Assembly (NCBI RefSeq): GCF_044647545.1 | Contig: NZ_CP172818.1 | DNA: 64,000 nucleotides | From: Escherichia coli | GTDB lineage: Bacteria; Pseudomonadota; Gammaproteobacteria; Enterobacterales; Enterobacteriaceae | Reading direction: 5' to 3' (one strand) | Shown: in pieces, positions 23,426 through 25,912 of the stretch | How the letters are laid out: the number at the start of each line of letters is the position of its first letter | How positions within the stretch are numbered: the first letter of the stretch is position 1 | Notes under the pieces: generated by a model | Database searches by the model: none | Seen by the model: only the letters and a program-made list of their open reading frames with translations | What the model was told of the DNA's origin: nothing | Made by a program: the position numbers and the translations under genes

Positions 23426-25182
23426 GCAGGGATCTCCCCCACAACACTCAACGCCCCCATAATCTTCAACTCCAGCTCGTCCGGCACTTCGTTATACGAC
23501 AGCACATGCAGCCCCGGCGCAAACAATCTCGCATAGCGCGCCAGCAAAGGGCGCAACTGCGGTGGCACCAGCAGCACAGGGTCTTTCCCCGCCGCTTTCA
23601 TCTGCTCCTTCACCTGCGGCATCGTACTCTGGAACTGGTTGAGCATATTCGGGTCTACCGGCACGCTGTCGAGCATCACTTTGCCGGCCTGTTGCGCCTG
23701 ATTCACCACGTTGGTCAGCAGATTTTCCAGCTCATTATTCAGCGTATACACCGTCAGCTCCTGCTTGCGAACGAACGGATGGGTAATGCTGCGCCGCAGC
23801 GCCAGGCGCACATCTGCCGCCAGCAGAATATGATCTTTGGTCACCGCACTACTGGCGACCAGCACGGTGGCGATGGTGACGATATCGCGCAGGGAAACGC
23901 CTTCAGTCAGCAGCGCCCGGTACACTTTCAGCAACTGGCTGTAATTCAGCGCCGCGCTCAAATCCTCCGCCAGTCGCGGTGCCATCGACGACAGGCGGTT
24001 ATGCAACTGCGTAATATCGTCATAGTTAAATAAATCAGGAATATAGCTGCGCACAATCTTATTCACATGCGTGGCAATTACGCTGGCGCTGTCGATCACC
24101 TGATACCCCATATTCAGCGCCTTCGCTTTCTGCGCAGGCTGAATCCAGGTGACCGGCATCCCATATGCCGGGTCATTCCCCAGTACGCCGTCAATCTCGC
24201 CGTAGGTTTCGCTGGAGGGCAGGGCCATCAGTTTATCCGCCGGAATATCCGCTTCATCAGCCTTAATGCCGTTGATGAAAATGGCGTACTGGCTGGGCTT
24301 GAGACGGAAGTTTTCCCGAATACGGATCTCCGGCAGCAGCACGCCGTTACCGTCGGATATCACCTGCCGCACGCCGCGAATCCGCTGGGTGAGCGGGTTC
24401 CCCTGCGCTTTGTCCACCAGCGCCACCAGCTTGTAGCCGAGGCTTAAGCTGATGGGCTCGATCAGCGGAATGGTTTCCCAACTGACCTGTTGCTCGCTGG
24501 TTTCGGTGATGGTTCGGGTCAGCGTTTCGAGGCTTTTCTCCTCCGCCTCCGCCGCCTGCGGGCGTTTGCTCATCCGCCAGCCGGTAAAGCCAAGCAGGGC
24601 GCTGAACAGCAAAAATGGCAGATGCGGCATCCCCGGCACCACCGCCAGCACAAACATGATCCCGGTGGCGGTGTAGAGCACCGACGGACTTGCCAGCAGC
24701 TGGTGGCGCACGTCATGGGCGATATCGCCGTTGTCGCTGACGCGGGTGACGATAATTGCCGCCGCGGTGGAGAGCAGCAGGGACGGGATCTGCGCCACCA
24801 GCCCGTCGCCGATAGTCATCAGCACATATTGCTGGAAGGCGGCGTCGGCGCTCAGGTTGTATTTGAAGATCCCGATACAGACGCCGCCGATCAGGTTGAT
24901 CGCCAGAATCATCATCCCGGCGATGGCATCGCCGCGCACAAACTTCGATGCCCCGTCCATTGCGCCGTAGAAATCGGCCTCGCTGGCAACATCTTTACGC
25001 CGGGTTTGTGCCTGCGCCTGGTTGATCAATCCGGCGTTAAGATCGGCGTCAATCGCCATCTGTTTACCGGGCATCGCGTCCAGGGTAAAGCGGGCAGAAA
25101 CCTCGGAAATACGCTCGGCCCCTTTGGTGACGACGATAAAGTTGATTGTCAACAGCGTCAGTAAATCCGAGCGTGAAAGCAT
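23377..25182 (-). pseudogene. lfhA: FlhA-family flagellar export protein remnant (Flag-2 lfhA), N-terminally deleted
   Basis: 601-aa ORF begins in the middle of the FHIPEP domain (…FTLDAMPGKQMAIDADLNAGLI…); no N-terminal TM region; 3' end overlaps yafL. Confidence 0.8.
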
Positions 25183-25912
25183 TATCGCCGCGCTACACGG
25201 GCAGTCGATTTTTAACGGTGGCGGGCTGTCGCCGTTAAATAAAATCAGCCCGTCTCATCCGTCAAAACCTGCCACCGTGGCAGTGCCGGAAGAGACGGAG
25301 AAAAAAGCGCGCGACGTCAACGAGAAAACGGCGCTGCTGAAGAAGAAATCCGCCACCGAGCTTGGCGAGCTGGCGACCAGTATCAATACCATCGCCCGTG
25401 ATGCGCATATGGAAGCGAATCTGGAGATGGAGATTGTTCCCCAGGGATTACGCGTGCTGATTAAAGACGACCAGAACCGCAATATGTTCGAACGCGGCAG
25501 CGCACAGATTATGCCGTTCTTTAAAACTTTGCTGGTGGAGCTTGCGCCAGTGTTCGACTCGCTCGATAACAAAATTATTATTACCGGGCATACCGATGCG
25601 ATGGCCTACAAAAACAATATCTACAATAACTGGAACCTTTCGGGTGACCGCGCGCTTTCGGCTCGTCGGGCGCTGGAAGAGGCAGGAATGCCGGAAGATA
25701 AAGTGATGCAGGTGAGCGCAATGGCGGACCAGATGCTGCTGGACGCGAAAAATCCGCAAAGCGCGGGCAACCGGCGCATTGAGATTATGGTGCTGACTAA
25801 AAGCGCGTCCGATACGCTGTATCAATACTTTGGTCAGCATGGGGATAAAGTGGTGCAGCCGCTGGTGCAAAAGCTGGATAAGCAGCAGGTGCTTTCACAG
25901 CGAACGCGTTAA
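25157..25912 (+). pseudogene. lafU: MotB/OmpA-like flagellar stator remnant (Flag-2 lafU), N-terminally deleted
   Basis: C-terminal OmpA-like peptidoglycan-binding domain (…NLSGDRALSARRALEEAGMPEDKV…NRRIEIMVL); no start or TM segment. Confidence 0.75.

Follow-up and report, generated by a model that had tools for sequence, protein, structure and literature searches.

Known excisions and the Flag-2 scar of K-12

Precise excision of transposons of the Tn5/Tn10 type is independent of RecA and takes place between short direct repeats. Recombinase-driven excision is known for the B. subtilis skin element (skin/sigK), the Anabaena nifD element and, through XerCD-dif, the gonococcal genetic island. 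Convergent pathoadaptive loss is known from 'black holes' such as cadA in Shigella, and source-sink evolution was reportedly treated by Sokurenko et al. in 2006. The closest relative of the locus described here is itself already known: it is the fhiA-mbhA (lfhA-lafU) pair of E. coli K-12, annotated as pseudogenes and reportedly called promoterless by Ren et al. in 2005.

The fhiA-mbhA scar is credited to Ren, Beatson, Parkhill & Pallen 2005, and a survey was published by De Maayer et al. 2020 (PMC6993521). Papers on the Flag-2 scar that appeared after 2005 and cite Ren et al. 2005 describe direct repeats and an en bloc deletion (PMC6993521, PMC3032704, PMC11420993). In these papers, undecayed remnants, clean pairs of remnant and intact strains and identity of the junction across genera are unreported.

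The site in our window (the whole analysed stretch of 64,000 nucleotides of E. coli DNA) is almost certainly the lfhA'-'lafU scar of the Flag-2 (lateral flagella) cluster, between yafL and dinB. The locus, both fragments and the junction nucleotide are those of K-12 and the structure is no different; it is the same feature. Unlike K-12, the window strain lacks rayT with the REP spacer, lacks the lfhA stop codon and carries a recombinant patch in lafU.

The junction in the window

In intact strains, about 40 lateral-flagellar genes sit between lfhA and lafU at the yafL-dinB locus. Here the interior is absent (the 5′ end of lfhA, lfhB, lfiR-M, lafK, the lfi, lfg and laf genes, lafT and the 5′ end of lafU), and the 3′ fragments of the two genes lie head to head between yafL/rayT and dinB, in the layout of the K-12 scar. 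Truncated lfhA (minus strand) and truncated lafU (plus strand), each without its N-terminus, adjoin at the following position:

25144..25146, no strand: deletion junction; intact loci have GAT at either breakpoint (window aligned three ways with R11 and PD23).

This lies inside the interval 25140-25200, where a reading of the sequence without database searches (hereafter the sequence-only reading) had the two fragments meeting within a few bp. That reading had also proposed an alignment to a strain with intact Flag-2, which we ran; it defined the endpoints and left GAT as the only shared repeat. Compared with intact Flag-2 strains, homology to lfhA extends from 23444 to 25146 and homology to lafU begins at 25141; the overlap reads GT(T/G)GAT, of which GAT is the exact part. 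The AT at 25145-25146 belongs both to lfhA Ile131 (read antisense) and to lafU Ile53 (read in sense). Alignment to the intact loci of R11 and PD23 bore out the removal of the 5′ part of lfhA, the intervening genes and the 5′ part of lafU, and the missing segment measures 38,138 bp against R11 and 40,040 bp against the near-isogenic intact strain PD23. The breakpoints match those of the K-12 derivative AML002 (lfhA nt 391, lafU nt 153-157), with an identical junction string. Because PD23, otherwise identical, keeps the whole cluster, the loss of Flag-2 in the lineage of the window is recent. As a feature of this window the scar is ordinary; it marks the loss of a second flagellar system and is mainly a typing marker, for example of ST131 subclades.

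The lfhA and lafU remnants

On the minus strand, three features were delimited:

23443..25146, minus strand: lfhA remnant, codons 131-696 (FHIPEP profile, alignment to R11 and PD23, PGAP).
25147..25182, minus strand: antisense-lafU codons MLSRSDLLTLLT, by which the lfhA frame is prolonged over the junction to an ATG (ORF list).
23442..23445, minus strand: lost lfhA stop codon, TGA changed to GTTG compared with FDAARGOS_497, R11 and PD23.

The minus-strand ORF 23377..25182 (601 aa) matched Pfam FHIPEP (PF00771) with E=4e-189 and 630 bits over profile positions 99-656 of 657, in agreement with the proposed FlhA-like ORF without an N-terminus. Positions 1-98 were unmatched, and the N-terminal transmembrane segments and own start of a complete protein are missing. 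Relative to R11 and PD23, LfhA residues 1-130 of 697 are gone; the nucleotide identity of the remnant is 94.5% to R11 lfhA and 99.8% to PD23 lfhA. PGAP labels the equivalent stretch 'FlhA, incomplete, missing N-terminus'. The remnant has no promoter and no start codon, and of the membrane domain everything ahead of residue 131 is gone. With the stop lost as well, its frame continues for another 22 codons to 23377 and enters the end of the convergent yafL.

The ATG of the extension at 25147..25182 is the start of the old K-12 'fhiA' ORF. It is a by-product of the fusion and not a conserved start; Kluyvera and Citrobacter have ATA where E. coli and Atlantibacter have ATG, and elsewhere starts are found at other positions. 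A promoter scan found no usable promoter for either remnant. The sole promoter-like match is on the minus strand, with a -10 hexamer that ends at 25181 and overlaps the ATG at 25182-25180; a transcript starting downstream would therefore exclude that start codon.

On the plus strand, the features are:

25147..25912, plus strand: lafU remnant, codons 53/54-307 and stop (Pfam OmpA, identity to R11).
25127..25143, plus strand: antisense-lfhA codons from a GTG, the PGAP start of a 261-aa 'lafU' (annotation of FDAARGOS_497).
25195..25792, plus strand: recombinant patch with 17 SNPs (comparison with PD23 and sister remnant strains).

The frame ending at 25912 matched Pfam OmpA (PF00691) with E=7e-15 and contains the C-terminal peptidoglycan-binding domain, as expected for the proposed MotB/OmpA-like C-terminal fragment, and the remnant is 97.3% identical to R11 lafU. 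The claim would have fallen if the two ORFs were not FlhA and MotB homologues; profile and alignment confirmed both families. LafU residues 1-52 of 307, which comprise the transmembrane helix and the plug, are gone, and with them the MotB N-terminus; PF13677 MotB_plug is precomputed for full-length LafU and absent from the 261-aa forms. A 271-aa LafU (P0333) was a false lead, as it belongs to an intact cluster. The PGAP annotation was taken from FDAARGOS_497, a strain 99.9% identical, and its GTG start is likewise a by-product of the fusion. The 17-SNP patch is restricted to the lafU remnant and begins 49 bp from the junction. Outside it, from 20797 to 28177, the window is identical to PD23 and to four sister remnant strains.

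Decay and constraint

We found 0 stops or frameshifts in the 566 + 255 codons of the remnants of 10 E. coli strains. For lfhA, dN/dS was 0.023 in each of three comparisons (within the remnants, within the intact genes and from one class to the other) at a dS of about 0.2; for lafU it was 0.052. The signature of a neutral pseudogene, dN/dS near 1 with stops and frameshifts, was absent from these genes. What the remnants do share with pseudogenes is the loss of promoter and start codon, the 5′ parts being deleted and the starts of the fused ORFs unconserved. Nucleotide diversity showed no drop toward the junction, and no remnant-specific SNPs were found among the sampled E. coli haplotypes, a small set of 10 remnant and 6 intact. 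Private substitutions in the remnants (45 synonymous vs 14 nonsynonymous) are far from neutral. Decay was seen in some lineages, as a 22-bp deletion with frameshift in E. albertii and as indel variants (P0024, P0084, P0086, P0008); together with the lost lfhA stop in the window, this is compatible with non-functional remnants. By themselves the remnants most probably have no activity.

According to the textbook view, one deletion took place in the ancestor of E. coli and Shigella and the fragments have since decayed neutrally as pseudogenes. The scar is indeed uniform in all Flag-2-negative E. coli and E. albertii (PMC6993521, PMC11420993), but the dN/dS of 0.02 among remnants at dS of 0.2 and the lack of stops in 10/10 strains contradict this account, which we consider extremely improbable. 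The sequence-only reading had also suggested a single deletion. As a statement about structure this holds, since there is one clean junction, whereas the comparative data oppose one old event followed by neutral decay.

Another possibility is that the remnants are functional: after an old deletion, purifying selection would have preserved truncated LfhA (its remaining transmembrane helices and cytoplasmic export-gate domain), the peptidoglycan-binding domain of LafU, or both. Across genera the ORFs are complete and show dN/dS of 0.02-0.2, the standard signature of functional genes, and 75% of E. coli genomes carry the remnants. Against this, the start codon is unconserved and there is no own promoter, and without its membrane anchor LafU′ could not have its periplasmic domain exported. 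The remnants also tolerate disabling changes (frameshift in E. albertii, indel variants, stop loss here), the constraint is as strong as in full genes though all partner proteins are gone, and the clean twins described below stay unexplained. This explanation is therefore improbable to us.

The leading explanation, to which we give slightly less than even credence, is that the scar does not come from one ancient event and that the same precise deletion was repeated independently across E. coli clones and enterobacterial genera. Each remnant lineage would be a young offshoot of an intact ancestor, in which the genes were under purifying selection until the deletion, and it is because of this youth that the remnants would look undecayed. 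The cadA-type 'black holes' are alike in that loss is repeated and independent, with the loss lineages being young offshoots of a long-lived intact reservoir. However, cadA-type losses have their own lesion in each lineage, whereas Flag-2 has the same junction in every lineage.

Remnant and intact strains of E. coli

The exact junction was present in one piece in 4,086 of the 5,426 complete E. coli genomes (75%) and is therefore not a chance pattern. The interior-side breakpoint sequence is kept in 1,330/5,426 (both sides at the median). Junction carriers and interior keepers add up to 5,416/5,426 genomes, and other complete deletion alleles are nearly absent. The junction was the same in 10/10 sampled remnant strains.

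Remnant and intact strains with identical flanks, up to 9.7 kb, were found in ST131, an ST648-like lineage and a B1 lineage. Four remnant strains (CFSAN061771, Z30, MS1718 and HCM-24C-3) showed 0/1698 and 0/765 differences from intact PD23, and 2013C-3033 showed 0/1698 and 4/765 differences from 8479. The ST131 twins SE15 and R11 had 0 differences over 6,900 + 2,840 nt of flank. Haplotypes outside the twin pairs differ from them by 3-6%. Remnant haplotypes are intermixed with intact ones, and the flanks are mosaic and common to both classes. This interleaving and the clean twins also contradict a single ancestral deletion with neutral decay.

The same data bear on the main rival, in which one very old deletion arose by illegitimate recombination in an early enterobacterial ancestor and has been kept since as a presence/absence polymorphism. 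Both alleles would be held in the descendant species by niche- or frequency-dependent selection on lateral flagella, and recombination tracts reaching up to the heterology boundary would keep the remnants identical to the selected conspecific intact genes. A single old origin explains the identical junction with 2-3 bp of homology without any new enzyme, and allele classes of about 75:25 in E. coli, found also in E. albertii (PMC11420993), suggest an equilibrium. The mosaic flanks shared by both classes and the recombinant tract that ends beside the junction in the window are in its favour, as is the scarcity of other deletion alleles, which matches a 'first allele dominates' pattern. A rough estimate from published recombination/mutation ratios of E. 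coli suggests that overwriting by intact donors could hold remnant dN low. However, the clean twins in three clones would need crossovers no further than about 30-70 nt from the junction on both sides, or donors of the same haplotype, and ordinary imports carry flanks that are 3-6% divergent. We regard this rival as rather unlikely.

Whole phylogroups carry remnants, and their share is 75%; this counts against recurrent deletion, as it sits awkwardly with the youth of every remnant lineage that the explanation supposes. Homologous recombination is active at the locus (17-SNP lafU patch by the junction, mosaic flanks), which also speaks against recurrence. So does the ST131 literature, which takes the Flag-2 difference as an insertion and not a loss (PMC5369007); recurrent deletion, if true, would reverse such published 'insertion' readings. 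Assigning the remnant strains with R11-type flanks to ST131 clades would not discriminate between the hypotheses, since the clone itself contains donors whose flanks are identical.

The same junction in other genera

The same junction nucleotide was found in E. albertii, Kluyvera ascorbata, Citrobacter sp. MGH106, Atlantibacter subterranea, 'Enterobacter sp. Ap-916' and two metagenomic lineages. In E. albertii, Citrobacter, Kluyvera, Atlantibacter, a Cedecea relative and others, the two Ile codons at the junction are likewise those of the E. coli scar. The junction is also present on two MAG contigs, labelled Clostridiales and Collinsella, which at 95-96% identity to E. coli were regarded as contaminants. 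Between the genera dS is at least 1, with synonymous sites saturated, yet 7/7 lfhA′ ORFs are complete. The occurrence of the junction in distant genera, with intact ORFs at such dS, further contradicts the textbook view.

In the flanks, synonymous variants particular to each species come as close as 1-4 nt to the junction, and these equal the conspecific intact gene wherever one was retrieved; the same is true for the Cedecea relative. A closely related intact form (conspecific where retrieved) is known for most of the taxa with the junction, and truncated and full-length forms occur side by side within E. coli, K. ascorbata, C. amalonaticus, C. farmeri and A. subterranea. Spread of the E. coli scar across genera by homologous recombination is unlikely, as the islands of identity by the junction are merely 4-18 nt long and the first nucleotides beside it are already species-specific.

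For a single deletion maintained by selection, both alleles would have to survive the splits of Escherichia, Citrobacter, Kluyvera, Atlantibacter, the Cedecea relatives and others, across which synonymous sites are saturated. The remnant flanks moreover equal conspecific intact genes from the very first nucleotide by the junction. A deletion kept in this way for >100 million years would make Flag-2 a balanced presence/absence polymorphism of unusual depth. It is possible, at somewhat less than even odds, that Flag-2 has been shed repeatedly in many genera by one sequence-directed excision between fixed Ile codons of lfhA and lafU. The wider pattern is that of a 40-kb regulon present or absent at a nucleotide-exact junction in many species, with no trace in the flanks and undecayed leftovers. 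Recurrent precise deletion, if true, would point to a mechanism, so far unrecognised, by which enterobacteria reproducibly lose genes on a large scale.

Breakpoint sites and candidate mechanisms

Under recurrent deletion, the event would take place at a fixed pair of sites inside conserved transmembrane-helix codons, ...GTT RAT|GAT CAT CAG... in lfhA and ...YTN TGG AT|N... in lafU. The scar would then be no fossil; a conserved deletion hot spot, or an unrecognised recombination system, would be creating it anew all the time, which we put forward as a possibility somewhat below an even chance. We know of no mechanism for recurrent precise deletion of Flag-2, which counts against recurrence.

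The only sequence common to both sites in every lineage is AT/GAT. The left site is conserved as ...GTTRAT|GATCATCAG, the right one only as TGGAT|, and the retained lafU side varies by lineage (IVNSVSK, IMGAVTE, ILSSVNQ, IINAVTP). The breakpoint repeat has 11/16 matches with a 3-bp exact core, and the surrounding ±400 bp holds 412 equally good pairs and two exact 10-mers. Reuse of the site as the best available microhomology was thus ruled out; with better repeats nearby and such an ordinary one at the breakpoint, a generic microhomology process would not choose the same site every time.

No integrase or recombinase was annotated in the intact loci of R11, NR301, 8479, AHM8C160RI, XD35 and PD23 (annotation only), except for the IS transposases of PD23 and, next to the locus, rayT, a gene that the PD23/window lineage lacks. 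The joined interior ends of a reciprocal product (circle or duplication junction) were found in 0/5,426 genomes, where a non-replicating circle would be invisible in assemblies. Inspection by eye for dif/Xer arms, integron core sites (GTTRRRY), the gyrase cleavage consensus and a Dam GATC at the left breakpoint gave nothing convincing. The lack of an annotated recombinase and of a reciprocal product, the ordinary 3-bp repeat and the unconserved lafU side all weigh against recurrence.

Flag-2 loss resembles Tn5/Tn10 excision in that a long segment is cut exactly between very short repeats and one copy is left. However, the latter needs long terminal inverted repeats and target duplications of 5-9 bp, compared with 2-3 bp for the Flag-2 repeat, and Tn5 and Tn10 are mobile elements whereas the Flag-2 segment is a flagellar regulon. 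With the skin, nifD and XerCD-dif elements Flag-2 shares the reproducible departure of tens of kb at fixed sites inside coding sequence, and its AT is a 2-nt palindromic overlap that would suit a staggered cut of the kind seen in recombinase-driven excision. These elements have a dedicated recombinase and recognisable core sites, and the gene is restored; in Flag-2, unlike them, no recombinase is annotated, the sites are dissimilar, two genes are destroyed and no reciprocal product was found.

A cassette model, in which the Flag-2 interior was inserted site-specifically into a resident scar, was rejected. In intact strains haplotype change-points lie at lfhA nt 51, 186 or 249 and never at nt 391; in lafU, SNPs occur before and after the junction position and no change-point can be seen there. 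The two ends of the missing segment form imperfect inverted repeats (by eye, about 18 bp at about 70%), both of which encode F-x-x-L-x-I.

Neighbourhood of the scar

Beyond the lfhA remnant, the window differs from related strains at one more position:

23426..23433, no strand: second small deletion site (comparison with FDAARGOS_497, PD23, K-12, R11 and SE15).

About 81 bp of the yafL-lfhA spacer, found in FDAARGOS_497 and PD23, and a rayT/REP segment of about 890 bp, found in K-12, R11 and SE15, are missing from the window. The region had been called GC-rich and prone to antisense shadow ORFs, and both descriptions are accurate: the GC content is 0.55-0.62 over the lfhA remnant vs 0.40-0.47 in the adjoining toxin-antitoxin genes, and the plus strand across from lfhA holds seven ORFs of 56-224 aa.

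Junction and endpoints of the Flag-2 deletion

The window comes from an E. coli chromosome, and the genes around the scar are, in order, dpaA, dinJ-yafQ, yafL, a FlhA fragment (minus strand), a LafU fragment (plus strand), dinB and yafN-yafO-yafP. A sequence-only reading had described the fragments as a FlhA-like ORF without its N-terminus and a MotB/OmpA-like C-terminal piece, left by deletion of the Flag-2 lateral flagellar cluster, and all its observations were found where it had placed them. Pfam searches recovered both fragments:

23377..25182, minus strand, FlhA fragment ORF; FHIPEP, E=4e-189, only profile positions 99-656 of 657
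frame ending at 25912, plus strand, LafU fragment; OmpA, E=7e-15

The region is indeed GC-rich with antisense shadow ORFs (GC 0.55-0.62 over the lfhA fragment, with seven long ORFs opposite it in the ORF list). At the end of the lfhA remnant TGA has become GTTG (window 23377-23445); with this stop gone, the frame reads through 22 more codons into the 3' end of the convergent yafL.

Alignment to intact Flag-2 loci, which had been proposed as a check, fixed the endpoints with the reference strains R11 and PD23 and, together with the published scar, supports the deletion. In R11, rayT and dinB are separated by a cluster of some 40 lateral-flagellar genes, with lfhA and lafU at its two ends. Window positions 23444-25146 align to the 3' 1.7 kb of R11 lfhA, and 25141-26200 to R11 lafU from nt 153 on into dinB; 38,138 bp are missing relative to R11 and 40,040 bp relative to PD23. 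The latter is a far better reference, with an intact locus in otherwise the same lineage as the window: there were no differences from 20797 to 25146, a spacer indel excepted, or from 25793 to 28177. The breakpoints (slashes) read as follows:

Left breakpoint: ...AAAGTTGAT/GATCATCAGG...
Right breakpoint: ...GCTGTGGAT/TGTCAACAGC...
Deletion product: ...AAAGTTGAT/TGTCAACAGC...

The exact homology shared by the breakpoints is GAT (25144-25146), within an imperfect 16-mer with 11/16 matches. The deletion removed residues 1-130 of the 697 in LfhA and 1-52 of the 307 in LafU, the LafU transmembrane helix and plug among them. Neither frame ends at the junction; each continues into antisense sequence of its neighbour, which accounts for the 579-aa 'fhiA' from ATG at 25182 in old annotations and the 261-aa PGAP 'lafU' from GTG at 25127.

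The scar itself is already known and had been read correctly; with the same locus and junction, the feature is a member of the K-12 Flag-2 scar. De Maayer et al. 2020 (PMC6993521) and Archer et al. 2011 (PMC3032704), both citing Ren et al. 2005, describe an lfhA/lafU deletion with direct repeats at its ends that leaves the pseudogenes fhiA and mbhA in K-12 and B. Carter et al. 2024 (PMC11420993) report both truncated genes 'uniformly' from those E. albertii and E. coli that are Flag-2-negative. We found the junction in one piece in 4,086 of 5,426 complete E. coli genomes (75.3%), and interior-side breakpoint sequence was kept in 1,330 (24.5%; both sides at the median). Since the two classes add up to 5,416 genomes, there is next to no room for any other complete deletion allele. 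Checking the scar exposed a reproducible pattern with which the standard explanation is incompatible.

Undecayed remnants and their intact twins in E. coli

We compared ten remnant strains (the window, FDAARGOS_497, O157:H7 F1273, K-12 AML002, Nissle (EcN), 2013C-3033, J-8, RMDEC332, SCU-316 and Ec-U11) with the intact strains R11/NR301, 8479, AHM8C160RI, XD35 and PD23. In this small, hand-picked sample, the breakpoints were identical in all ten remnants, and no stop or frameshift was found in their 566 lfhA and 255 lafU codons. If a single deletion were ancestral, all differences among remnants would postdate it and dN/dS should be near 1. Simple distance-based estimates (pairwise Nei-Gojobori) gave 0.023 for lfhA among remnants (dS 0.19, dN 0.0044), the same value among intact genes and between remnants and intact genes, and for lafU 0.052 among remnants and 0.022 among intact genes. 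Private substitutions (synonymous:nonsynonymous) numbered 45:14 in remnants and 30:3 in intact genes; in remnants, only about one private change in four looks neutral.

Remnant haplotypes matched intact ones as far as the junction itself, though not all of them the same one, and the comparison of remnant and intact haplotypes revealed neither remnant-specific SNPs nor a drop of diversity towards the junction. Moreover, flanks were identical between remnant and intact strains in three unrelated clones, from which other haplotypes differ by 3-6%. In the ST648-like clone, CFSAN061771, Z30, MS1718 and HCM-24C-3 differed from PD23 at 0/1,698 lfhA and 0/765 lafU sites; in a B1-type lineage, 2013C-3033 differed from 8479 at 0 lfhA and 4 lafU sites; in ST131, in-silico deletion of the R11 locus gave a 100.0% match to at least 25 remnant genomes, and SE15 showed no differences from R11 over 6,900 + 2,840 flanking sites. 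Allele swap from a foreign donor by ordinary homologous recombination should leave imported SNPs, and none were present in the flanks of the twins in these clones. In the ST131 literature, the difference between clades is interpreted as insertion of Flag-2 (PMC5369007); the clean flanks are more easily reconciled with loss.

Undecayed remnants and clean twins contradict the classical account of one ancestral deletion followed by neutral decay, as does the junction's presence in other genera (next section), and we consider this account highly improbable. That the remnants are functional is unlikely: such conservation is what normally counts as proof of function, but start codons vary, nothing anchors LafU' in the membrane, the remnants tolerate disabling mutations and the clean twins are left unexplained.

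Recombination also acts at the scar locus. Between 25195 and 25792, the window carries 17 SNPs confined to the lafU remnant, the first 49 bp from the junction, while the surrounding 7 kb show zero differences from PD23 and four sister strains. The cluster is a recombination tract ending within 49 bp of the deletion junction; its donor was not found, and of 15 haplotypes in the comparison only the window has the variant at 25195.

Occurrence of the junction outside E. coli

When one genome per species was scanned with a codon-degenerate junction pattern, there were matches in Escherichia albertii NBRC 107761, Kluyvera ascorbata ATCC 33433 and Citrobacter sp. MGH106. Matches in a 'Clostridiales' MAG (L026, SFGJ01000062.1) and a 'Collinsella' MAG (L027, JAIJJM010000815.1) were rejected as binning contamination, being E. 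coli yafL-lfhA-lafU at 95-96%. Follow-up protein searches, in which the junction was not preselected and distant taxa were sampled by one or few genomes each, recovered LfhA ORFs shortened to 560-598 aa. These come from Atlantibacter subterranea, a relative of 'Enterobacteriaceae bacterium H16N7', 'Enterobacter sp. Ap-916' (a Cedecea relative) and several other lineages. LfhA sequence sets in at the same place in them (.../INF[IV]VVTKG), after residues encoded by antisense lafU. Truncated and full-length LafU coexist within K. ascorbata, C. amalonaticus and C. farmeri. The DNA of four loci from the protein searches had the same head-to-head arrangement and junction. The overlap is AT, where the antisense of LfhA Ile131 (ATY) meets the LafU Ile codon after the transmembrane-helix Trp; the retained LafU sequence varies by lineage (IVNSVSK, IMGAVTE, ILSSVNQ, IINAVTP).

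Remnants of Atlantibacter and Kluyvera were 98.4-99.3% identical to conspecific intact genes and shared with them the first nucleotides beside the junction, both unlike those of E. coli. In Atlantibacter the exact breakpoint homology is down to AT, and in the Ap-916 lineage it is probably AT too, judging from the remnant (R) form and from C. davisae, whose intact genes are 80-85% identical. Synonymous divergence has reached saturation between genera (dS at least 1; dN 0.04-0.24), and all seven lfhA remnants from outside E. coli are complete to the native stop.

We lean, tentatively, towards recurrent precise deletion, in which the identical event would recur independently in intact lineages and each remnant would be the young product of a separate event. 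Recurrence would explain clean twins, low dN/dS, species-specific flanks and cross-genus distribution in one step. Occasional decay, namely a 22-bp deletion in the E. albertii remnant, indel variants in E. coli remnants and the lost lfhA stop of the window, fits it as well. Its weak point is the mechanism: no recombinase is annotated in the intact Flag-2 loci examined, breakpoint homology is 2-3 bp with better repeats nearby, and assemblies of the 5,426 complete E. coli genomes contain no reciprocal product. If true, recurrent deletion would somewhat resemble precise transposon excision and recombinase-driven excision of intervening elements in process; the scar belongs to neither, as it also lacks long terminal repeats and target duplication, and all that the two sites share in every lineage is AT/GAT. 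Convergent pathoadaptive gene loss has a like outcome, but the Flag-2 scar differs in having one junction everywhere.

The main rival of recurrent deletion, less probable than it but more so than functional remnants, is a single old deletion that would have persisted as a balanced presence/absence polymorphism while recombination evened out the flanks common to both alleles as far as the heterology boundary. Such a history requires no new enzyme and fits the 75:25 ratio in both E. coli and E. albertii; however, both alleles must survive all genus splits, and clean twins demand crossovers near the junction. The probability left over belongs to explanations outside these four.

K. ascorbata has two distinct LafU types (L024/L032; P0153, P0213, P0280): a 329-aa protein of the Flag-2 type, which also occurs truncated to 280 aa, and a 309-aa type common to Enterobacter, Lelliottia and Cedecea, in whose clade truncated LafU is rare. 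Two types point to a further lateral-flagellar system in this species.

Other features of the window and its relatives

Flag-2 end sequences occur on a few plasmid-labelled records of the E. coli genome set (ecoli_genomes; NZ_CP104632.1, 100,861 bp, and 16 other 'plasmid' places), either mis-assigned chromosome fragments or F-prime-like elements carrying the region.

The yafL-lfhA spacer beside Flag-2 is a small indel hot spot. It is nearly absent at window 23426-23433, where the window lacks about 81 bp found in FDAARGOS_497 and PD23 and also the 890-bp segment with rayT (REP-associated tyrosine transposase) and REP of K-12, SE15 and R11; in B1-type strains a hicAB toxin-antitoxin pair occupies this position. 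The toxin gene yafQ (21926-22203) is frameshifted, leaving a 69-aa ORF (21994..22203) beside an intact antitoxin gene dinJ (22206-22466). Annotations of FDAARGOS_497, PD23 and four sister strains show the same frameshift, which makes it a lineage marker.

Compared with FDAARGOS_497, blast blocks show about 1 kb missing at 28640-29530, with most of an rtcB-like RNA ligase gene upstream of prfH, and about 450 bp missing downstream, around a metal-dependent hydrolase gene. The segment 1-15500 carries an rRNA operon with tRNA-Ile/Ala/Asp, mltD, an RHS-repeat gene and an ISAs1 transposase; its best genome matches are just 98.2% identical, in four pieces, and the type VI secretion cluster at the equivalent place in FDAARGOS_497 has no match in the window. 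Downstream of tRNA-Thr (37415-37490), the stretch 37415-62000 matches the CP4-6 prophage region of K-12 (yagF, mmuP, IS30, ISEc19) at 99.7% identity over 24.6 kb. The 22 kb before it are ST648-like, with the searched scar stretch only about 96% identical to K-12; either the CP4-6-like island is horizontally shared or the strain is a mosaic.
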